From: Pyrinomonadaceae bacterium
Lineage (GTDB): Bacteria > Acidobacteriota > Blastocatellia > Pyrinomonadales > Pyrinomonadaceae
Assembly (NCBI GenBank): GCA_049679665.1
Contig: JBAUGL010000066.1
Location: 3,550-67,549, forward strand
Length of the DNA stretch: 64,000 nt
Reading direction: 5' to 3'
The notes beneath the pieces are model-generated. The model was not told the DNA's origin. It searched no databases and worked only from the letters and a program-made list of their open reading frames with translations. The position numbers were made by a program, and so were the translations under genes. Shown here piece after piece: positions 38,655 through 45,982 of this stretch. Numbering within the stretch: the first letter of the stretch is position 1; every line of letters starts with the position of its first letter.

Positions 38655-39875
38655 ATGAGCATTTCCGTGGACAGAATTCCGGCACAATTCGAAGTGATCG
38701 ACGGCTCTCTAGATTCACAGATGACACTTTCGATGGGGCCGCAGCACCCTTCGACCCACGGGGTTTTGCGACTGGATCTGAGGCTCGACGGCGAGCTGGT
38801 TGTCAAGGCTATTCCCGACATAGGCTATCTGCATACGGGAATGGAGAAGCTCTTTGAATACAAGAAATACCAGCAGGGTATCGTCATAACGGATCGGATG
38901 GATTATCTTAATCCGCTTGGCAATAACCTTGCGTATGTGATGGCCGCCGAAAAGCTTCTGCAGCTTGAAATACCCGAACGGGCACAGGTCGTCCGTGTGC
39001 TGATGTGTGAACTGCAGCGTATTGCCTCGCATATGGTCTGGTTGGGTACGAGCGCTCTCGATCTCGGCGCGATGAGCGTGTTCTTCTTCTGTTTCAAGCA
39101 GCGCGAAAAGATACTTAACCTTATCGAATCGGCCTCAGGCGGCCGAATGACGCCCAGCTATTTCCGTATCGGCGGACTAATGATGGATCTCCCGGCGGGA
39201 TTCGAACGCCGCTGCAACCAGTTCATGGCCGATTTTCCGGAAGCACTAAGTACCTTTGATACGCTTGTCACCGGGAACACAATTTGGCAAAGCCGAACGA
39301 TGGGGATCGGCGTGATCTCGGCCGAAGAAGCGATCTCATGGGGACTGACGGGGCCGAGCCTTCGCGGAAGCGGGGTTGAACTCGATCTTCGCCGTCACAA
39401 CCCCTATACCGGTTACGAAACTTACGATTTCGACATTCCCACGGAGCCCGACGGCGACGTCTGGTCGCGATTTCGTGTACGTATGCGGGAACTCGACGAA
39501 TCATACAAGATCGTTCGTCAGGCGCTCGAACGCCTGAAGCCCGGCCCGATCAAGGCGGACTCGCCTAAAGTCGTACTACCCGACCGCGACGATATGCGCA
39601 AGCATATGGATTCGCTGATCCATCACTTCCTGATCGTTGCCGAAGGATTTAACGTGCCCGAGGGTGAGGTTTATATGGCGATCGAGGCTTCAAAAGGCGA
39701 ACTCGGTGTCTACATGAAGTCCAACGGCGGCCCGAAGCCGGAACGCGTCCACTTCCGCGGCCCAAGCTTTGTAAATCTTTCGGCGTTGCCCGTGATGAGC
39801 GAAGGAGAGATGGTAGCTGACGTGGTGGCGATAATCGGAAGCCTGGATATTGTGCTTGGAGAGATAGATCGATAG
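38655..39875 (+). CDS. nuoD: NADH-quinone oxidoreductase subunit D
   Basis: MGPQHPSTHGVLRL, GYLHTGMEK, and a C-terminal DIVLGEIDR ending. Confidence 0.97.
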   Translation: MSISVDRIPAQFEVIDGSLDSQMTLSMGPQHPSTHGVLRLDLRLDGELVVKAIPDIGYLHTGMEKLFEYKKYQQGIVITDRMDYLNPLGNNLAYVMAAEKLLQLEIPERAQVVRVLMCELQRIASHMVWLGTSALDLGAMSVFFFCFKQREKILNLIESASGGRMTPSYFRIGGLMMDLPAGFERRCNQFMADFPEALSTFDTLVTGNTIWQSRTMGIGVISAEEAISWGLTGPSLRGSGVELDLRRHNPYTGYETYDFDIPTEPDGDVWSRFRVRMRELDESYKIVRQALERLKPGPIKADSPKVVLPDRDDMRKHMDSLIHHFLIVAEGFNVPEGEVYMAIEASKGELGVYMKSNGGPKPERVHFRGPSFVNLSALPVMSEGEMVADVVAIIGSLDIVLGEIDR

Positions 39876-39881
39876 AACAGT

Positions 39882-40229
39882 ATGGCGGGAGAATACGACG
39901 AGAAATTCGAGCAACTTACAACCGTGATTTCGAGAGTTGTCGGCCGGGTAGACGAACTACGTCTTGAAATGCGTGATATGAGCAGCGAACTGCGATCTAA
40001 TACGACGCAGTTAGGATCGGTTACGACGGCGCTAGGATCGGTTAAAACGGAGCTAAGATCGGTTAAATCGGAACTAGGATCGGTTACGACGCGTCTTGGA
40101 TCGCTTGAAAGTAAAGTCAACTTACTTTCGGCACAGTTCACCGATGTCGCCAGCATGGCGATCAAGGACCATCCGAGGATCGACAACCTTGAACAACGCG
40201 TCGGTGCTCTCGAATCAGAAACACATTGA
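39882..40229 (+). CDS. Small heptad-repeat coiled-coil protein of unknown function inserted between nuoD and nuoE
   Basis: 115-aa ORF 6 nt after the nuoD stop. Its stop overlaps the nuoE ATG (TGATG). Core is LRSNTTQ-LGSVTTA-LGSVKTE-LRSVKSE-LGSVTTR-LGSLESK. Confidence 0.6.
   Translation: MAGEYDEKFEQLTTVISRVVGRVDELRLEMRDMSSELRSNTTQLGSVTTALGSVKTELRSVKSELGSVTTRLGSLESKVNLLSAQFTDVASMAIKDHPRIDNLEQRVGALESETH
39990..40115 (+). repeat. Six tandem 21-bp units (consensus about CTAGGATCGGTTACGACGNNN) encoding heptads
   Basis: Read directly from the sequence. Units start at 39990, 40011, 40032, 40053, 40074 and 40095. Confidence 0.9.
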
Positions 40230-40759
40230 TGGCAACAGCAGCCCCCACAACTTTTACAGATCAGATCGAATACTCCGAAGAAGTAGCGGAGTTTTCGCCG
40301 GATATCATCGATGAAATGTACGGCCACCTCGCTAAGTACCCGCCAGAGCGGAGCCGTTCTGCTTTGATACCGCTCTTGACGCTGGTCCAGCGTGAACGTG
40401 GATGGATAGACAACCCGGGTGTGAATTTCCTCGCAAAATTCCTCGGACTGCATGTTACCGATGTTTGGGAAACGGCGACGTTCTATTCGATGTTCAATCT
40501 GCGCCCAGTGGGCCGCCACCACATCCAGATCTGCAAGACGCTCTCGTGCAAGATCATGGGCGAGCCCGAGATCACCGATCATATCTGTAAAAAGATCGGT
40601 ATTCACCCTGGCGAAACAACCGAGGACGGCAAGTTTACCGTCACGATGGTCGAATGCCTCGGAAGCTGCGGTACGGCGCCGATGATGCAGATCGGGTTTG
40701 ATTATCACGAGGACCTGACAACGAAGAAGGTAGATGAGATTTTGGATTCGTGTCAGTAG
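40229..40759 (+). CDS. nuoE: NADH-quinone oxidoreductase subunit E
   Basis: Thioredoxin-like 2Fe-2S motifs ICKTLSC ... ECLGSCGTAP and the YP...SALIPLL N-terminal region. Confidence 0.93.
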   Translation: MATAAPTTFTDQIEYSEEVAEFSPDIIDEMYGHLAKYPPERSRSALIPLLTLVQRERGWIDNPGVNFLAKFLGLHVTDVWETATFYSMFNLRPVGRHHIQICKTLSCKIMGEPEITDHICKKIGIHPGETTEDGKFTVTMVECLGSCGTAPMMQIGFDYHEDLTTKKVDEILDSCQ

Positions 40760-40814
40760 GTTGGATGTGTCAGTAGCTCGCACGTGTCAGTAGCCCGCAC
40801 GTGAGTAAGGGCTC
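40751..40814 (+). repeat. REP-like cluster: TGTCAGTAG x3 at 17-nt spacing, the third extending into a full unit GTGTCAGTAGCCCGCACGTGAGTAAGGGCTC
   Basis: Copies at 40751, 40768 and 40785. The first copy supplies the nuoE Cys-Gln-stop codons. Confidence 0.75.
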
Positions 40815-41370
40815 GACATATATCTCGTTCAACGTTATTTTGACTACTCGCGACTACATAGAGTTTCAGGATCGTTCGGTAGCAAAAGGGTATTTGATAA
40901 CATTCCGGTGCTACGGAACATGGCTGCACGGAGACGAACAAGGCTCCGTCGATCGACGATGGCACAACACGTATGGCACTACGATGATCAAGCCTGACGC
41001 CGAAAAAGTTAGTCGAAAGGCGAGCCAATTAAAGAGCGAGACTTTTCTGCTGCGCGGACGCGAGCGAAAAGTCGTTGAAGAAGCGATCAGAGAAGTCTGC
41101 GATGTTCGGGGATACGGATTATTCGCTGTGAACGTGAGGACCAATCACGCTCACTCGGTCGTTAGTAATTCCGATAAACCGGAACGATTGATGAATAGCT
41201 TTAAGGCGTATTCTACTAAGGCTCTAAGAACTGCCGGTTTACTCGCAGCCGACGCTCGGGCATGGAGCCGTCATGGAAGCACGAGATATCTCTGGACAGA
41301 CGACCACATTTCAGCGGCGGTTGACTATGTAGTCAACGGGCAGGGCGGTGACTTGCCGAAGTTTGAATAG
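40801..41370 (+). CDS. IS200-like / REP-associated tyrosine transposase (RAYT, HUH-Y1 family)
   Basis: YLITFRCYGTWLHGD N-terminal strand, HUH motif VRTNHAHSVV, catalytic-Tyr region WSRHGSTRYLWTDDHISAAVDYV. GTG start lies inside a REP unit, so the start is uncertain. Confidence 0.8.
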   Translation: MSKGSTYISFNVILTTRDYIEFQDRSVAKGYLITFRCYGTWLHGDEQGSVDRRWHNTYGTTMIKPDAEKVSRKASQLKSETFLLRGRERKVVEEAIREVCDVRGYGLFAVNVRTNHAHSVVSNSDKPERLMNSFKAYSTKALRTAGLLAADARAWSRHGSTRYLWTDDHISAAVDYVVNGQGGDLPKFE

Positions 41371-41375
41371 TAGTT

Positions 41376-41508
41376 GTGTCAGTAGCCCGCACAGTAAGTA
41401 GGGACTCAACGTAGAGCTAGATAACGTTGGCCACCACGCTCGACCACGTTACCTGATATTGACTTATGAATGAACTTGAGCCCTTACTTACGTGCGGGCT
41501 ACTGACAC
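41376..41508. repeat. REPIN-like inverted pair of the same REP unit
   Basis: Direct unit at 41376-41407 (GTGTCAGTAGCCCGCACAGTAAGTAGGGACTC). Inverted unit at 41478-41508 (reverse complement GTGTCAGTAGCCCGCACGTAAGTAAGGGCTC). Spacer is 70 nt. Confidence 0.75.
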
Positions 41509-41559
41509 GAGGATTTGACGACTGAAAAGGTGGATAAGATTTTGGAGGAATGTCAATGA
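41509..41559 (+). pseudogene. Orphan copy of the nuoE 3' terminus (encodes EDLTTEKVDKILEECQ-stop)
   Basis: Hand alignment to 40708-40758 gives about 36/51 nt and 12/16 aa identical. It ends in an ATGA overlap with the next ORF. Confidence 0.65.
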
Positions 41560-41915
41560 GGGAAGGAACTCAAACGATAGCAAATCAGCAACCCACAAAT
41601 GTCTTTGTCGCTTTCGAGATGCTTCTTGAGGAAATAGAGGCGGAGGTCGAAATCGTAAATCGAGCAGGTGGAAGGGCGTTCGAGCGAGGGAACTATGAAG
41701 ATACCCGCGCAATTCTCGAACGAGCTGGCGTGGTCACAAGTTTCCGGGATCGGACTGATGCGTTGCGTCGCGATTGGGATAGCTTCTTCGCTTCAGCCGA
41801 AGCCAAGGAAGATGTTGAGACGCTCGCTGAACGGCGAAATCTTGGACGCCTATCACGAGGATTGAGGACGCCTGAGCAGGCGTACAATCGACCAATTCTT
41901 GAGGTACTGAACTAG
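41550..41915 (+). CDS. Hypothetical protein, N-terminal fragment of a winged-helix protein; ends at an in-frame TAG
   Basis: ATG at 41550 or 41556. The C-terminus ...RTPEQAYNRPILEVLN looks like the opening helix of an Mrr_N-type winged helix that continues in the next ORF. Confidence 0.5.
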   Translation: MSMREGTQTIANQQPTNVFVAFEMLLEEIEAEVEIVNRAGGRAFERGNYEDTRAILERAGVVTSFRDRTDALRRDWDSFFASAEAKEDVETLAERRNLGRLSRGLRTPEQAYNRPILEVLN

Positions 41916-42152
41916 ATGGGCGGCAGGGGGCCAATGAGCGAGGTACTCGACAAAGTTCAAGTCAAGTTGGGTGGTGTGCTAAAAGACGTGGACTTCGAAC
42001 CGTTGGCATCCGACACCAATATTCTTCGTTGGCGAAATGCAGCCCAGTGGGCAAGGAATACGCTGGTTAAGGAAAGGCTGCTTAAGAATGATAGTCCACG
42101 AGGAACTTGGGAAATCACTGAAGCAGGTACTAAGGCCCTACGCGAAACATAA
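41916..42152 (+). CDS. Mrr_N-like winged-helix domain fragment, same frame as the preceding ORF
   Basis: GGRGPMSEVLDKV...LRWRNAAQWARNTLVKERLLKNDSPRGTWEITEAG matches the Mrr N-terminal wHTH pattern. Its stop overlaps the nuoF ATG (TAATG). Confidence 0.55.
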   Translation: MGGRGPMSEVLDKVQVKLGGVLKDVDFEPLASDTNILRWRNAAQWARNTLVKERLLKNDSPRGTWEITEAGTKALRET

Positions 42153-43459
42153 TGGAAATCAAAGCAATTGGCTGTGAGCCGCTTCAGTTGAAGCGAATGC
42201 ACATCAAGGATGGGCACACGCTAAAGGTGTATCGCGAAACGGGCGGTTACAAGACGCTCGAAAAGGCGCTCAAGATGGCGCCGGCGGATATTATCGAAGA
42301 GGTGAAACTGTCAGCGCTGAGAGGGCGTGGCGGTGCCGGATTCCCGACCGGGATGAAATGGTCGTTTGTTCCAAAAGATTCGCCGAAGCAGAAATATATC
42401 GTCTGCAACGCCGACGAGTCAGAGCCTGGCTCATTCAAAGACCGGTATTTGATGGAACGCGACCCGCATTCAATGATCGAAGGGATGATCATCGCCGCGT
42501 ATACACTTGGTTCGCAGACGGGCTACATTTATACACGCGGCGAATATAAGTACCTGATCGATATTATGGATGCCGCCCTTGCCGAGTGCCGCGAAGCCGG
42601 CATTCTCGGCAAAAACATCTTCGGCTCGGATTTTTCGTGCGATATTCATACGCACACCGGCGCCGGTGCTTATATCTGCGGTGAAGAAACGGCATTGCTC
42701 TCGAGCCTTGAAGGGTTTCGAGGTCATCCGCGGATGAAGCCTCCGTTTCCGGCCGTCGAGGGTCTGTATGCATCGCCGACGATCGTAAATAATGTCGAAA
42801 CATTCACCTCGATCCCGCAGATCATCGAAATGGGTGGAATTGCCTGGCGCGATCTTGGCACGGAAAAATCGGGCGGGACAAAGCTTTGGTCTATCAGCGG
42901 ACACGTTAAGAAACCGGGCGTTTACGAGCTTCCGATGGGCTACGCCGATATGGAAAAGTTCATCTTCGAGGATTGCGGCGGGATGCTTCGCGACGATAAG
43001 AAGCTCAAGGCGGTCATCCCAGGCGGTTCGAGCGTTTACATAATGAATGCCGGCCAGATTCTCGGCAAAAACGTCACGCTGGATTACGAGGGCCTTGTCG
43101 CAGCGGGCTCGATGCTTGGCACGGGCGGGATGATGGTTATGGATTCCACGGTCGATATTATGGAATCGACCAAGAATCTGTCGGAGTTCTATAAACACGA
43201 ATCGTGCGGTTGGTGTACCCCATGCCGCGAAGGAACGGATTGGCTCGTCAAAATTTTCGACCGCATTGCATCAGGCGGCGGACGCCCCGAGGATGCACAG
43301 CTGCTGCTCGACATCTGCGACAACATCGAAGGCAAAAGCTTTTGCCCGCTAGGTGATGCGGCCGCATGGCCGGTCCAAAGCGCGATCAAACAGTTTCCGG
43401 ATGATTTTAGGAAGTGGCTCGTCGATAATACGAATGGCGATATCGTTGCAAATGTTTAA
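42152..43459 (+). CDS. nuoF: NADH-quinone oxidoreductase subunit F
   Basis: GRGGAGFPTG (FMN), CNADESEPG, GAGAYICGEETAL (NADH), and the N3 cluster motif ESCGWCTPCREG. Confidence 0.96.
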   Translation: MEIKAIGCEPLQLKRMHIKDGHTLKVYRETGGYKTLEKALKMAPADIIEEVKLSALRGRGGAGFPTGMKWSFVPKDSPKQKYIVCNADESEPGSFKDRYLMERDPHSMIEGMIIAAYTLGSQTGYIYTRGEYKYLIDIMDAALAECREAGILGKNIFGSDFSCDIHTHTGAGAYICGEETALLSSLEGFRGHPRMKPPFPAVEGLYASPTIVNNVETFTSIPQIIEMGGIAWRDLGTEKSGGTKLWSISGHVKKPGVYELPMGYADMEKFIFEDCGGMLRDDKKLKAVIPGGSSVYIMNAGQILGKNVTLDYEGLVAAGSMLGTGGMMVMDSTVDIMESTKNLSEFYKHESCGWCTPCREGTDWLVKIFDRIASGGGRPEDAQLLLDICDNIEGKSFCPLGDAAAWPVQSAIKQFPDDFRKWLVDNTNGDIVANV

Positions 43460-43517
43460 CTTCGTGTTCGAAACTGTCAATACGATTTATGTTTTTCACT
43501 AAAATAGGGAGGATGCT

Positions 43518-44411
43518 ATGAAACAACTTAGACTTCTTGTACTGCTGATGTTGGGTCTCTTGCTTTTTTCTGGGATTATCTCGGCGCAAAACAATCAGGT
43601 CATCATATACAACGATTTCAATTTTCAGGGTGCCAACATAGCTCTTACAGGAAACTGGAACGGAACGGGTGGCTTTGACCGGAACATAAAGTCGGTCCGC
43701 ATTCCCCAGGGGTACAGGGTGACCATGTTCCAAGAGAAGAATTTCAGGGGAACGTCGACGGGGGTTATGACGGAAGACTGGAACCCAGGCCGGGGTGCCC
43801 ACTGGATCAACCGGGTTCGTTCGATCCGGGTCGAAGGTGGATACGCTCCTCCGCCGACTCCGGGCGATTTCCCTGTGATTTACGCCCAGGCGAATTACCA
43901 GGGGCCGGCTGAAGCGATAGAAAACGGCTATGCCGGACGGCGTGACTGGGAAGGCTCGCCTCATCGAATCCGATCGATCCGTGTGCCTGCCGGCTGGAAA
44001 CTTACGCTATATACACTGCGGAATTACACCGGGCAGCAAACCACGGTCACATCCAGTATATCGTGGGTTCCCGGCGATTGGTGGAGCGGGAAAGTTCGTT
44101 CGATACGAGTTGAACGTACCGGCGGCGGCACAACTCCGGGCGGTTCCGTTGTGATCTATGCCCAAAACAACTATAACGGCCCAGCCATGGCCGTCGATCG
44201 CGACTGGCCGGGCAATCGTGATTGGGACGGCAGGCCGCACAGGATTCGTTCCATCCGGGTGCCGCAGGGTCGACCAATTATGGTTTATGAAAAGACAAAT
44301 TACCGCGGCAGGTCATATCTCGTGACATCGGACTGGGCGCCGCAGCCGGGCGATTGGTGGTTCGGTCGGATCCGTTCGATCAAACTCAATCCGGGGCCAC
44401 AGCCTAGATAG
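43518..44411 (+). CDS. Secreted protein with three beta/gamma-crystallin-type domains
   Basis: GGGAGGA Shine-Dalgarno sequence and signal peptide MKQLRLLVLLMLGLLLFSGIISAQ. Three units of the form (V)IYxxxNYxG...IRSIRVPxG...(Y/F)xxxNYxG...VRSIRV. Confidence 0.8.
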   Translation: MKQLRLLVLLMLGLLLFSGIISAQNNQVIIYNDFNFQGANIALTGNWNGTGGFDRNIKSVRIPQGYRVTMFQEKNFRGTSTGVMTEDWNPGRGAHWINRVRSIRVEGGYAPPPTPGDFPVIYAQANYQGPAEAIENGYAGRRDWEGSPHRIRSIRVPAGWKLTLYTLRNYTGQQTTVTSSISWVPGDWWSGKVRSIRVERTGGGTTPGGSVVIYAQNNYNGPAMAVDRDWPGNRDWDGRPHRIRSIRVPQGRPIMVYEKTNYRGRSYLVTSDWAPQPGDWWFGRIRSIKLNPGPQPR

Positions 44412-44432
44412 TACTAACAAAAGTTAGTGTCG

Positions 44433-44460
44433 CGGGAGCCATCGTGAAGCATGGCTCCCG
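44433..44460 (+). other. Strong 10-bp hairpin after the crystallin gene (possible U-tract-less terminator or processing site)
   Basis: CGGGAGCCAT / ATGGCTCCCG with an 8-nt loop. A second small hairpin GCAAA/TTTGC follows at 44461-44478. Confidence 0.4.
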
Positions 44461-44509
44461 GCAAATTGTAAAGTTTGCGACCAACCGGGATATTTTGATG
44501 CAGTTCAAT

Positions 44510-45781
44510 ATGAGTAGAATCTGTGTTCGAACCGCGATCCTCTTTTTGATCGCAATTTCGACATTTGCGGCCTCCGTATTGGCACAAAGCGGTGGCCTTG
44601 TGGCATCGACGCGAATTGCGACGATGCCCGCAGCCCAATTCAACGCACGATTGAACGAGGTCTTTGGCACGTCCGCTCCAGAACCGCTTCGAGGTTCTTT
44701 GAATCTATATAAGGTTACTTACCGCTCGCGGGACGCGAATGGAAGAAATGCGGTCTTGTCCGGACTTGTCGTCGTTCCATCGAATGGGGCACCGAACGGT
44801 CTCGTGGTTTTCAACCACGGCACTACAGTTTACAACGGCCATATGCCGTCAAGATTTACGAGTAAAACTAAGGGAACAGAGCCGGAAACGGCAATACTTG
44901 CCTTCGCGTCGGGCGGTTACGCGATCGCGATGCCGGATTATATCGGCCAGGGCGATCACACCGGCGGACATCCGTATCCGGCGAACATAGTCAACGCGCA
45001 GGCAGGAATCGATTTGATCAAAGCCGCCAGCGAAGTCGGTCGACGAAATACGGTGAATATCGGTCGACAGCTTTTTATTACTGGTTATTCGGAAGGCGGC
45101 GGCGTCGCGATGGCTCAGGTTCGCGAGCTTGAACGCTCAAACGACCCGGCGCACCGCGTGACGGCGGCGGCTCCAGCATCTGGGCCTTATGACCTGTCCG
45201 GATCAACGCGGGAATTCATGCTTGAACAGCCGACAGATCAGGCCGGTTTTGTTGTTCGAACATATCTGCTAGGCGACTTGGTATATTACGTGCATAAGAG
45301 CAAGGGCGTGAAGATCTCGGACTATTTCAAATCGACAATGGCCTTTACGATCAATAACGCTTACGGTGGGAAGACCAAGGACGAAGACATCATCAAGCGA
45401 ATCGGCTTGACCGCCATCCTGATGCGGGCGAAAAACAATATTTACAACGTCGTCACGCCGCGTTTTAAACAAGCAATTGAAACGATGGATCTGCGCGATC
45501 CGGCTGTAAGTTTGCTAAAAGACAACGACGTTTATGACTGGTCGCCGAGATCCAAAATGCTGCTCATTAATCTCGAGGGCGATACGATCGTGACGCCGAG
45601 GAATTCGGAGGTGGCATTCCAGACAATGCGTCGACGGGGAGTCGGGCGCGAGACGCTGCGGCGGTCGATCATACGCGATTCGAGTCTGAATCACATAACC
45701 GCGGTACCGGCAGCGATGCTTCAGGCCCGACATTTTTTCGATGGCGGCTTCCAGGGCGTTCGTGATCTGGACGAAAATTAG
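44510..45781 (+). CDS. Secreted alpha/beta-hydrolase, lipase/esterase-like
   Basis: Signal peptide MSRICVRTAILFLIAISTFAASVLAQ and nucleophile elbow GYSEGGG. Start moved from the GTG at 44444, which lies in the hairpin loop, to ATG 44510. Confidence 0.8.
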   Translation: MSRICVRTAILFLIAISTFAASVLAQSGGLVASTRIATMPAAQFNARLNEVFGTSAPEPLRGSLNLYKVTYRSRDANGRNAVLSGLVVVPSNGAPNGLVVFNHGTTVYNGHMPSRFTSKTKGTEPETAILAFASGGYAIAMPDYIGQGDHTGGHPYPANIVNAQAGIDLIKAASEVGRRNTVNIGRQLFITGYSEGGGVAMAQVRELERSNDPAHRVTAAAPASGPYDLSGSTREFMLEQPTDQAGFVVRTYLLGDLVYYVHKSKGVKISDYFKSTMAFTINNAYGGKTKDEDIIKRIGLTAILMRAKNNIYNVVTPRFKQAIETMDLRDPAVSLLKDNDVYDWSPRSKMLLINLEGDTIVTPRNSEVAFQTMRRRGVGRETLRRSIIRDSSLNHITAVPAAMLQARHFFDGGFQGVRDLDEN

Positions 45782-45824
45782 GTAGTATTTCTGATTCAAC
45801 AGTTTTGATAGAGAGGTAATAATT

Positions 45825-45968
45825 ATGGGAAAAGGCGATAAAAGATCACGAAAGGGAAAGATCGTAACTGGTAGTTTCGGTAAAACCAGACCGAAGAAAA
45901 AGAAGGCTCACAGCGCGGAAGTCGTTGCTGATGCCAAAGCGAAGAAAAAGAAAGAAGCCTCAGGTTAA
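45825..45968 (+). CDS. 30S ribosomal protein Thx (bTHX), 47 aa; absent from the ORF track
   Basis: MGKGDKRSRKGKIVTGSFGKTRPKKKK closely parallels Thermus Thx ([26 protein letters not shown]). GAGAGG Shine-Dalgarno sequence 8 nt upstream. Confidence 0.85.
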   Translation: MGKGDKRSRKGKIVTGSFGKTRPKKKKAHSAEVVADAKAKKKKEASG

Positions 45969-45982
45969 GGTAACAGTTTTCA

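Follow-up and report, generated by a model that had tools for sequence, protein, structure and literature searches.

A transposase and repeat cassette bracketed by a duplicated nuoE tail in the nuo operon of Pyrinomonadaceae

The window, as the whole analysed stretch of 64,000 nucleotides is called here, carries the nuo operon of a soil member of the Pyrinomonadaceae (Acidobacteriota). In the nuoE-nuoF junction of this operon lies a unit of the REPtron/TIRtron type, which is co-oriented with the operon and bracketed by a direct 51-nt duplication of the nuoE tail. The two tail copies are named T1 (upstream) and T2 (downstream), relatives and contigs are given as L numbers, and the features of the locus are the following:

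40229..40759, + strand: nuoE (complex I 24-kDa subunit), intact, 176 aa; Pfam 2Fe-2S_thioredx, 4.9e-52
40709..40759, + strand: T1, the upstream, translated tail copy (EDLTTKKVDEILDSCQ-stop), 0.73 to the family consensus, further from it than T2
40750..40759, + strand: GTGTCAGTAG, the repeat-head 10-mer, with which nuoE ends (final codons and TAG stop)
40767..40783, + strand: partial repeat (outer 17 nt, 1 mismatch), part of a 17-nt tandem array at 40749-40803
40784..40814, + strand: left repeat unit GTGTCAGTAGCCCGCACGTGAGTAAGGGCTC, with its GTAG head at 40790-40793
40801..41370, + strand: Y1 HUH transposase gene (RAYT/TIRYT-like), probable start TTG 40840 (176 aa), same orientation as nuo
41376..41409, + strand: degenerate unit of the repeat, forming the inner arm in the downstream doublet
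41478..41508, - strand: right repeat unit, whose outer end ...CTACTGACAC adjoins T2
41509..41559, + strand: T2, the downstream, putative relic tail copy (EDLTTEKVDKILEECQ-stop), 0.81 to the native-tail consensus; 62 against 18.4 +/- 3.5 for shuffled sequences
41544..41558, + strand: GGAGGA Shine-Dalgarno-like motif (41544-41549) and the ATG of the next gene (41556), both within T2 and read from the sequence
41556..42152, + strand: 119-aa ORF (family unknown) and 78-aa Mrr_N ORF, cargo ORFs between T2 and nuoF
42152..43459, + strand: nuoF; Pfam Complex1_51K, 2.1e-47

A protein identical to the NuoE of the window is found in one NCBI Pyrinomonadaceae MAG and in one Logan contig, and the end of the gene, TCGTGTCAGTAG, includes the first 10 nt of the repeat. 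An in-frame TGA at 41503-41505 closes T2 upstream, two codons ahead of its start. At its other end T2 finishes with caATGA, in which TGA 41557-41559 overlaps ATG 41556, the start of the 119-aa product in the Logan gene call as well, so that the stop/start overlap with the next gene described in an earlier note on this DNA is indeed present. This next gene is not nuoF: T2 is followed by the 119-aa ORF and the 78-aa Mrr_N ORF, neither of which has a homolog among the other relatives' loci compared, and then by nuoF at 42152. Promoter and terminator scans gave nothing exceeding shuffles, and Rfam gave no match over 39500-42500. As read from the sequence, the cassette does not truncate nuoE: T1 completes the gene and the downstream translation-initiation region is retained, with T2 as a predicted untranslated relic that still carries the ribosome-binding site of the next gene and the stop/start overlap.

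The recurrence of the last 51 nt of nuoE, on which the earlier note rested, is real, with the correction that the upstream copy occupies 40709-40759 and not 40708-40758, one base off. In the corrected register (EDLTTKKVDEILDSCQ-stop versus EDLTTEKVDKILEECQ-stop) the copies match at 36/51 nt and 12/16 aa, as had been estimated by hand, and at 37/51 if shifted by one base to take in a shared C; the repeat search places the pair at 40706-40755 and 41506-41555 (spacing 800) with a CAC common to both and preceding each copy. Ungapped 51-mer scores on both strands of the window have a mean of 12.7 and a standard deviation of 3.1, the best unrelated pair reaching 29/51. A chance resemblance, or a mis-assembly across the repeat, is extremely improbable. 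The assembly graph does branch at the 31-mer, and in an independent assembly the Logan contigs L001 and L082 break and overlap inside the right repeat unit, one ending and the other starting there; against this, the observed match lies about 7.5 standard deviations above background, and the order nuoE, T1, cassette, T2 and, further down, nuoF is the same in five other lineages from independent assemblies. Nine of the 15 differences between T1 and T2 fall on third codon positions (P=0.03), and in all lineages the first 36 nt of T1 and T2 are 78-86% identical, compared with 53-67% for the last 15 nt. Besides being closer to the consensus (0.81 versus 0.73), T2 is nearer than T1 to L027 and L026, both phylogenetic neighbours of the window (0.78 and 0.84 for T2, 0.65 and 0.69 for T1). 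These values support the earlier proposal that T2 is an end of the native or ancestral type, and we infer that in the window T2 would be the native tail of the lineage and T1 the derived one.

Between the tail copies lie inverted 31-nt GTAG-headed repeats and a Y1 gene, in agreement with the REP-like repeats and HUH-Y1 gene previously recognised there. The GTAG head is invariant, and a 32-nt inverted pair (40783-40814 / 41478-41509) is 97% complementary. Taken singly, the left unit shows weak folding (-5.5 kcal/mol, z -1.6), and the unit at 41376-41409 together with the right unit forms a long hairpin (-35 kcal/mol, z -6.7), strong hairpins arising from repeat doublets only and not from single units. 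The motif GTGTCAGTAGCCCGCAC occurs 4 times against 0.06 expected. No copy of the repeat was found outside the cassette within the 64-kb window, and in roughly 0.75 Mb from relatives seven copies lie elsewhere. T2 begins exactly at the outer end of the last repeat (ctgacac/gaggat, the slash marking the junction), just as had been observed before. At the other side of the cassette, the repeat head GTGTCAGTAG provides the "CQ-stop" of nuoE in at least nine relatives, where the full repeat is fused to the gene (tcGTGTCAGTAGCCCGCAC). GTAG repeat termini are known to often give a TAG stop to flanking ORFs (Di Nocera 2013, PMC3733652).

The transposase gene is the only ORF between T1 and T2. Its product scores above the gathering cutoff of Pfam Y1_Tnp (27.2 bits versus 23), residues H116 and H118 (H116-x-H118) and Y163 are invariant in 18 homologs, and close homologs are labelled RayT by JGI. 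With an AF2 model of pLDDT 74.5, the top 30 Foldseek matches are all IS200/IS605 Y1 or TnpA-REP structures, including TnpA-REP 4er8 (E 7e-5). The protein falls below the cut-offs of the curated RAYT model NCBIfam NF047646 (22.1 versus 80 bits) and of the IS200 model (22 versus 55), and a PDB sequence search with it gave no match. Transposases of the same clade occur between nuoE and nuoF in at least seven other lineages (L012, L078, L083, L084/85/123, L093/94/121, L120/119 and L122). They are 68-81% identical to each other (differing by 19-32%) in a star-like pattern, and homologs at non-nuo loci are at most 72% identical to the transposase of the window. A search for a near-identical second copy of the whole element found none, the best homolog anywhere being 81% identical.

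The identical junction, CTGACAC/GAGGAT at nuoE -51, accompanied by a significant relic, is present in the window, L061, L120, L122, L084 and L093 (each P=0.002). Aligned with its relatives, the nuoE-nuoF interval agrees with the earlier view in that the T2-type end is ancestral-like; the cassette itself is not private, its junction being shared with five other lineages, and by sequence comparison the arrangement appears to be an old, shared architecture and not a fresh insertion. Identity of T2 to the native-tail consensus ranges from 0.75 to 0.94 (functional tails, 0.76 +/- 0.07), with the T2 of L122 being 94% identical to the consensus and that of L061 97% identical to the functional tail of L075. 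T2 is followed by differing genes of native style (S26 peptidase, HicB, SnoaL_2), and the tail-gene junctions are the same in relatives without the cassette. On the NuoD+NuoF tree the taxa that bear the cassette lie scattered, with sister taxa that have none. Relic decay also varies: the relic is partly degraded in L084 and truncated in L093, and a significant one was sought in L066, L083 and L012 and found in none of them. Possible decayed relics following the repeat in L066, L046, L083, L012, L078, L009, L018 and L014 were no better than shuffles and were rejected.

The earlier note had proposed that the element lands in nuoE and replaces its C-terminus. What stands is that the cassette sits between a functional and a relic tail and that the stop is the repeat head; what outruns the evidence is a landing particular to this genome, a contribution of more than 10 nt and a tie to the transposase. 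Only the last 10 nt of T1 (the CQ-stop) are assignable to the repeat. For the 39 nt of T1 that precede the repeat head, Mann-Whitney tests of cassette linkage gave P=0.13 (difference) and 0.018 (identity), and because this association is weak T1 is not claimed as cassette-borne. Both tail copies, moreover, occur in relatives that lack a RAYT between them: L061 has only a repeat doublet there, and in L036, L013 and L054 the copies surround unrelated cassettes. Tail duplication accordingly does not depend on the transposase. A mobile unit consisting of a nuoE-like tail, repeat, transposase and repeat that transposed into nuoE at -51 and brought along its own C-terminus and stop codon, in the manner of integrase-type islands at icd or tRNA genes, would fit the topology, and the left flank of the target (TATCAC/) and the right end of the unit (GACAC/) share CAC, as cleavage and rejoining by an HUH enzyme would give; DSCQ-type T1 tails, in addition, recur in scattered lineages. 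Nevertheless, T1 tails vary widely among cassette-bearing lineages (DSCQ, AACE, NECE, AECA, AECQ, EKCQ) and share lineage-specific variants with T2, T1 without the repeat head is not significantly linked to the cassette, cassettes of this transposase at other loci mostly have neither a gene tail nor a flanking repeat, and with no transposase pair above 81% identity there is no sign of recent spread. We consider such a unit improbable, and a recent transposition carrying its own C-terminus has probably not taken place.

Tail duplication extends to other passengers and other genes. Unrelated cassettes of relatives, some of them toxin-antitoxin-like, are likewise bracketed by nuoE-tail duplications, and these non-repeat cassettes, each type of which occurs once in the sample, have the same architecture with other boundaries (-66, -85 and about -100). 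Flanking copies can be nearly identical, as in L036 (81 nt, 97.5%), L054 (52 nt, 90%) and L099, in which a cassette of the same transposase type splits the 5' end of coaBC between 43-nt flanking repeats (93%). Tails of nuoD are duplicated in L049 and L055, and several tails are stacked in L054 and L093. The coaBC case, a second and independent instance of a long flanking repeat, hints that the insertion process itself may create long flanking repeats. It could do so in situ and independently in each lineage, through staggered breaks or template switches separated by about 45-105 nt, or through one-sided homologous plus illegitimate recombination, with only those duplications that span a gene end surviving. 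Consistent with such an origin are the near identity of the young cases (L036, L099, L054), the lineage-specific variants shared by T1 and T2 in L084, L120 and L054, the varied boundaries of the non-repeat cassettes and the nuoD duplications. However, it leaves the same repeat/GAGGAT nucleotide in six lineages unexplained unless joining is site-specific, a simple duplication would not be expected to leave the greatest T1/T2 differences at the 3' ends, and target duplications are not known for IS200/IS605-type enzymes (PMC2817692). Nor is a long flanking repeat a general trait of repeat islands, most of which have none, L099 being the only case besides those at nuoE. We regard independent in situ duplication as unlikely.

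The reverse extreme, one ancient insertion with duplication in an ancestor of the family, followed by vertical descent only and frequent loss, with T2 maintained either by selection for its role as leader and ribosome-binding site or through gene conversion from T1, would suit the deep, star-like group formed by the nuo-located transposases, the GGAGGA and start codon of the next gene held by T2, and the range of decay of the relics, from L084 and L093 to those with none significant; RAYTs are also typically single-copy and vertically inherited (PMC5581495). It requires many independent losses, though, and selection for a ribosome-binding site would not explain why the 5' 36 nt of a relic that is not translated should be conserved at the amino-acid level, nor T2 identities as high as those of L122 and L061. 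The lack of a positive correlation between transposase and host identity points in the same direction (rho -0.58), although the pairs are few and non-independent, which makes it weak evidence either way. Purely vertical descent seems improbable.

The reading that we favour, to which we give a probability of roughly 45%, is that of an old cassette allele with direct gene-tail repeats, of single origin, that has since been gained, lost and refreshed by homologous recombination. Under this model, an illegitimate or transposase-assisted join at CAC/GAG would have created the junction once, and the cassette would then have persisted as an allele. Homologous recombination between T1 and T2 would delete it and restore a single tail, and installation into a cassette-free relative would require a left crossover in nuoE and a right crossover between T2 and the tail of the recipient, which would work whatever gene lies downstream of that tail. 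This would explain the constant junction, the patchy distribution and the presence of young, native-looking relics beside old, diverged transposases, and the tails stacked in L054 and L093 are expected from repeated upstream installation. The CTCGAC shared by both copies in L084, a variant specific to that lineage, fits in situ duplication or gene conversion equally well. The recombination model is weakened by the fact that RecA works poorly across species on an arm of 51 nt with 75-85% identity, and also because no breakpoint is seen along nuoE (51-nt windows against 11 relatives, and body-versus-tail identity, gave no clear tract) and the link between T1 and the cassette is weak once the 12 repeat-derived nt are removed. 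A search for a cassette-free conspecific allele, which would show gain or loss directly, found none: the NuoE search returned nothing between 86% and 100% identity, the sole NuoE above 86% being the identical one, and exact-protein look-ups led to no contigs other than those of the same sample. The 92% identity that NuoE seemed to have to L120 is an artefact, since the comparison took in the conserved C-terminal part alone.

A broader and more doubtful extension is that a gene tail, of nuoE or nuoD, serves as a portable homology arm, with cassettes that carry a distal tail copy being installed, stacked and exchanged by homologous recombination into an integrase-free, integron-like array within an essential operon, of which the transposase/repeat cassette would be the oldest and most widespread passenger; alternatively, the constant CAC/G junction might reflect the in vivo cleavage and joining specificity of the transposase family. 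The locus shows how selfish or accessory DNA can inhabit a translationally coupled essential operon without breaking it, the upstream gene remaining whole and the ribosome-binding site of the next gene being kept because the tail of the upstream gene is duplicated. Such a bracket would make the insertion reversible and transferable through ordinary recombination, and this would account for nuoE-nuoF gaps of anywhere between 0 and about 2.5 kb within one family. For the question of how RAYTs and REPINs move, the locus offers a conserved and precise junction between repeat end and coding sequence, CTGACAC/GAGGAT, that is testable in vitro. New here are the nuoE -51 junction shared with five other lineages, the repeat-head CQ-stop, the consensus-like relics, the other tail-bracketed cassettes and the coaBC case.

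Among known systems, the locus resembles REPtrons and RAYT-REPIN systems (Nunvar 2010, PMC2817692; Bertels & Rainey 2011, PMC3116915; Bertels 2017, PMC5581495) in having a lone Y1 HUH gene between inverted short repeats, a GTAG repeat head, doublets that form long hairpins, tandem or clustered arrays beside the gene, and co-occurrence of repeat and transposase across species; most of the repeat-containing homolog loci likewise have the gene between inverted repeats. It differs from them in its host, an acidobacterial family, in a single unit that is barely self-complementary, in a protein below the NCBIfam RAYT cut-off and in the conserved position of the gene inside an essential operon. A 51-nt direct repeat of a neighbouring gene's tail around the cassette was not found in this RAYT literature (PMC2817692, PMC3116915, PMC5581495). 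TIRtrons encode TIRYTs, RAYT-like tyrosine transposases with non-palindromic terminal inverted repeats that include a sharply defined group in Acidobacteria, and some of their repeat families are moderately abundant and occur as dimers or clusters (PMC3733652). By description, TIRtrons are alike in inverted repeats that are not proper palindromes, in dimers and clusters and in their occurrence in Acidobacteria; in contrast, the repeat described here has a GTAG head, and gene-tail duplication is not reported for TIRtrons (PMC3733652). IS200/IS605 elements have distinct subterminal hairpins, no terminal inverted repeats and several near-identical copies, whereas the ends of the present cassette are inverted copies of one repeat.

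Integrative elements such as e14 and phage 21 in icd and the islands in tRNA genes substitute a duplicate copy for the 3' end of the gene that they enter. As in the nuo operon, functional and displaced, diverged 3'-end copies flank the inserted DNA and the gene stays intact. Such elements depend on an att site and an integrase of the tyrosine or serine type; here there is no integrase, the only enzyme being a Y1 HUH transposase, and the bracket is also found around unrelated cassettes at this position. In homology-facilitated illegitimate recombination of transformable bacteria, one homologous crossover and one illegitimate join insert foreign DNA (PMC3240628). In that case, too, the 3' end of T1 would be foreign and T2 would stay native, but it predicts a junction that differs from event to event and not one nucleotide in six lineages. 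Finally, and by analogy only, integron arrays also stack unrelated small cassettes at one site with the newest beside the anchor, as in L054 and L093; here, however, there is neither an integrase nor an attC, and what is repeated is part of the upstream gene.

The repeated end of nuoE lies within the complex I (nuo) operon, in which the features discussed here are arranged as follows.

Features of the nuo region (window coordinates)
from 36938, nuoA
from 37451, nuoB
from ~38100, nuoC
38655-39875, nuoD
39882-40229, 115-aa coiled-coil ORF between nuoD and nuoE, stop/start overlap at both ends
40229-40759, nuoE
40709-40759, T1, translated copy of the last 51 nt of nuoE, preceded by CAC
40801-41370, 189-aa ORF, transposase
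41509-41559, T2, downstream relic copy, preceded by CAC
41556-41915, 119-aa ORF, no family match
41916-42152, 78-aa ORF, Mrr_N winged-helix domain (5.5e-12)
42152-43459, nuoF
43518-44411, beta/gamma-crystallin-like secreted ORF, nuoF-nuoG gap
44444-45781, lipase-like ORF, nuoF-nuoG gap
nuoF-nuoG gap, Thx ribosomal-protein gene

T1 and T2 are spaced 800 nt apart and bracket a cassette that consists of a Y1 HUH transposase gene and flanking inverted 31-nt repeats. The duplication described in the earlier note is borne out, with 36 of 51 nt and 12 of 16 amino acids agreeing in register, once its coordinates for the upstream copy are shifted by one base. Background 51-mers agree at 12.7 +/- 3.1 positions and the best unrelated one, in 128,000 positions, at 29. 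Of the 15 differences between the copies, nine concern third codon positions (P=0.03) and none is an indel. In every lineage the identity of T1 and T2 drops from 78-86% in the first 36 nt to 53-67% in the last 15 nt. T2 starts, as had been claimed, where the inverted repeat has its outer end, and it does end in a stop/start overlap (caATGA), the gene overlapped being the 119-aa ORF and not nuoF. Because the repeat puts an in-frame TGA two codons ahead of it, T2 cannot be read from upstream; it carries the ribosome-binding site and start of the next gene. The 119-aa and 78-aa ORFs are cargo between T2 and nuoF (41556-42152) for which no homologs were found among the other fetched loci, the 78-aa ORF having a weak PADLOC match to type IV restriction enzymes. 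The nuoF-nuoG gap (43460-45982) is likewise filled with cargo, and no duplication of the nuoF tail was found in it. Upstream, the 115-aa ORF contains a 21-bp tandem repeat (~4.9 copies, 40001-40103) encoding LGSVxxx heptads, and has homologs in the same position in the relatives L042 (63%) and L052 (60%) and weaker ones in ~15 others.

The 189-aa ORF passes the Pfam Y1_Tnp model (27.2 bits, gathering score 23) and misses both NCBIfam equivalogs (REP_Tyr_transpos, 22 vs 80; IS200, 22 vs 55). An alignment of 18 homologs contains an invariant H116-x-H118 and Y163 within WSRHGSTxYLW, and suggests that the true start is the TTG at 40840. The top 30 PDB matches of its AlphaFold model (pLDDT 74.5) are only IS200/IS605-family Y1 transposases, including the E. 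coli REP-associated 4er8, and close homologs are labelled 'REP element-mobilizing transposase RayT' by JGI. The repeat can be read through in one frame (RVSSPHVSKGS), which continues in frame into the ORF (40784-40842, and the N-termini of transposases P0001 and P0107), so that gene callers extend the protein N-terminally through the repeat; judging from sequence conservation, the real start is probably M(P/K)(K/T)RDYIEFQ. Since a single repeat folds poorly (z -1.6), doublets fold strongly (z -6.7 and -9.3) and a GTAG head is present, the unit is intermediate between the REPtron and TIRtron classes of Di Nocera et al. (PMC3733652), in whose work a distinct acidobacterial group of such transposases is described.

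The REP-like repeats reported earlier were recovered, GTGTCAGTAGCCCGCAC being present four times against 0.06 expected, and a 32-nt inverted pair with 97% complementarity flanks the transposase ORF. At its 5' side the 31-nt repeat is sharply delimited at GTGTCAG, and its GTAG head is invariant. Across many species it is almost unchanged (0-2 mismatches), and among the fetched loci it is concentrated in the nuoE-nuoF gap. In at least nine lineages it is fused to nuoE, with GTGTCAGTAG encoding the final Cys-Gln-stop; GTAG heads donating TAG stops are already known (PMC3733652). An unrelated ~365-aa gene enters the repeat head in another frame (L087 3949, L089 1498, L091 3941, L100 3935), and thus takes its last six codons and stop (VSxART-stop) from the repeat; in these four loci the transposase cassette lies immediately downstream. 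Between the nuoE stop and the inside of the left repeat (40749-40803) there is a tandem array of 17-nt units, and the outer 17 nt of the repeat (GTGTCAGTAGCCCGCAC) is also often multiplied at other cassette borders (L084 4770-4821, L114 609-670, L014, L078). The boundary between tandem units, CAC followed by GTG, has the same context as the repeat-nuoE junction, CAC followed by GAG, and may be a trace of the transposase cleavage site. When the same sample was assembled independently (Logan), contig L001 stopped (window ~41507) and contig L082 began (window ~41480) inside the right repeat, with an overlap of ~28 nt, which indicates further copies of the 31-mer in that metagenome or genome. Chance resemblance and mis-assembly are excluded for practical purposes, with the caveat that this independent assembly branches inside the 31-mer.

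The length of the nuoE-nuoF gap varies between 0 and 2490 nt among 80 genomes of the family, and in compact genomes the nuoE stop abuts the nuoF start (...GATTGTAAGTAG followed by ATGGAG). Transposases of the same clade (68-81% identity) are found co-oriented between the two genes in L012, L078, L083, L084/85/123, L093/94/121, L119/120 and L122, while homologs at other loci reach at most 72% identity and are mostly flanked by inverted repeat copies. In six lineages (window, L061, L120, L122, L084 and L093) a statistically supported relic tail starts at the same nucleotide, right after ...CTGACAC, with scores of 50-88 each vs ~16 +/- 3 for shuffles. The gene that follows varies, being the 119-aa ORF in the window, an S26 signal peptidase in L061, SnoaL_2 in L120 and HicB in L122 and L084; these tight junctions between tail and gene are also present in cassette-free relatives (e.g., ...GAGTGTAAATAAatATGAGC for SnoaL_2). 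In L061 both tail segments surround a repeat doublet without a transposase, which comes close to what the earlier note had named as evidence against its own reading.

Which terminus is ancestral, a question that note had put to related genomes, was answered with a consensus of 62 native tails. T2 is 0.81 identical to it in the window and 0.75-0.94 in other lineages, compared with 0.76 +/- 0.07 for functional native tails and 0.73 for T1, and the L061 relic is 97% identical to the functional tail of L075. The window T2 is closer to the tails of the tree neighbours L027 and L026 (0.78 and 0.84) than T1 is (0.65 and 0.69), and the tails nearest to T1 are those of the repeat-bearing L010 (0.90) and L009 (0.86); T2 is thus the native end of the lineage, of ancestral type, and T1 the derived one. 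The affinity of T1 to other cassette-bearing tails comes mostly from its repeat-derived last 12 nt and is weak without them. That a transposon carried the tail along, as first proposed, is considered quite unlikely. The nuo-located transposases differ pairwise by 19-32% in a star-like pattern and the carriers occupy scattered positions on a NuoD+NuoF tree and have sisters that lack the cassette; the cassettes are therefore old, and no positive correlation between transposase identity and host Nuo identity was found for the nuo-located transposases. This creates an age paradox, as the cassettes are old, yet the junction is constant and their untranslated relics look just as young as coding tails. 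Pure vertical descent, with T2 kept by constraint or gene conversion, agrees with relics that have decayed (non-conservative transitions in L084, truncation in L093) or are undetectable in several carriers; it is nevertheless improbable, because T2 would then be free to decay and only some relics have decayed.

Tails of nuoE also bracket cassettes unrelated to the transposase, with different left boundaries (-66, -85 and ~-100, in nt counted back from the nuoE end), and similar duplications affect nuoD.

Other duplicated tails (coordinates of each locus)
L036, 6461-7200, BrnT-like pair, duplication of 81 nt at 97.5%, boundary ~-85
L013, 6451-6780, small membrane ORF, boundary ~-66
L054, 1974-3660, three stacked nuoE tails
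L093, 3140-3260, second, longer relic
L049, 5810-5831, nuoD 3' end, 22 nt at 100%, enlarged nuoD-nuoE gap
L055, 5283-5332, nuoD 3' end, 50 nt at 88%, enlarged nuoD-nuoE gap

Tail duplication is thus not confined to nuoE. The non-transposase contents of the bracketed cassettes (L054, L036, L013, L093) include a BrnT-like pair, DUF2283 and a small membrane ORF, and the tails, up to three of them, can lie one behind another like growth rings, with HicAB, SnoaL_2, SIMPL and tautomerase genes between them; the older L054 arrangement (DSCK tail, degenerate repeat and SIMPL) corresponds to the live one in L035. In L011 (2722-2749) the nuoE end is duplicated in tandem over 14 nt (GTGACTGTAAATAG twice) directly before nuoF, with nothing inserted, which may be a footprint or precursor. 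At an unrelated locus, L099 (3560-3660, 4230-4340), a cassette of the same type splits the coaBC 5' end; the relic keeps the native coaBC start and promoter-proximal 45 nt, closed by a repeat-encoded VSVART-stop, and a 43-nt copy (93% identical) restarts intact coaBC 16 nt past the right repeat. The flanking repeat is absent at most other repeat islands, so insertion does not necessarily leave a bracket behind; brackets are seen where a gene would otherwise be cut by the cassette. L084, L099 and L036 hint that duplications can arise in situ; as the origin of the nuoE bracket we consider a long in situ duplication with site-specific joining rather unlikely. Independent illegitimate events would not strike the same nucleotide in six lineages.

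The sequences themselves show the bracketed arrangement, what its parts are, its recurrence with a single junction, the native character of T2 and the presence in T2 of a ribosome-binding site and start for the following gene; the history behind them is inferred. The best model, to which we assign a probability of roughly 0.45, is that of a single founding join followed by gain, loss and refreshment of the allele by homologous recombination. The outer end of the repeat would have joined nuoE once at CAC followed by GAG, where the 3 nt CAC are shared, and the cassette would then persist as an allele. Recombination between T1 and T2 would remove it; one crossover in nuoE and another between T2 and the native tail would install it and thereby refresh it. 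Such a history would explain why the junction is constant, the relics are young and the native downstream genes are diverse, as well as the patchy distribution and the stacking. Against it count the very short right homology arm and the hints of in situ duplication; no recombination breakpoint is visible along nuoE, and no same-species empty site was found. The nearest genomes, at 78-86% NuoE identity, are MAGs of Pyrinomonadaceae (Acidobacteriota, Blastocatellia). An identical NuoE is recorded in an NCBI Pyrinomonadaceae MAG contig and in the Logan assembly of SRR28022739.

With respect to known systems, the papers examined describe neither a Y1-transposase cassette that keeps a single site within an essential operon throughout a bacterial family, nor a 51-nt duplication of a neighbouring gene's tail bracketing such a cassette, nor the same tail bracket around unrelated cassettes. 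Flanking inverted repeats like those of the window cassette are already known from RAYT/TIRYT units, and gene-end duplications from integrase-mediated islands.
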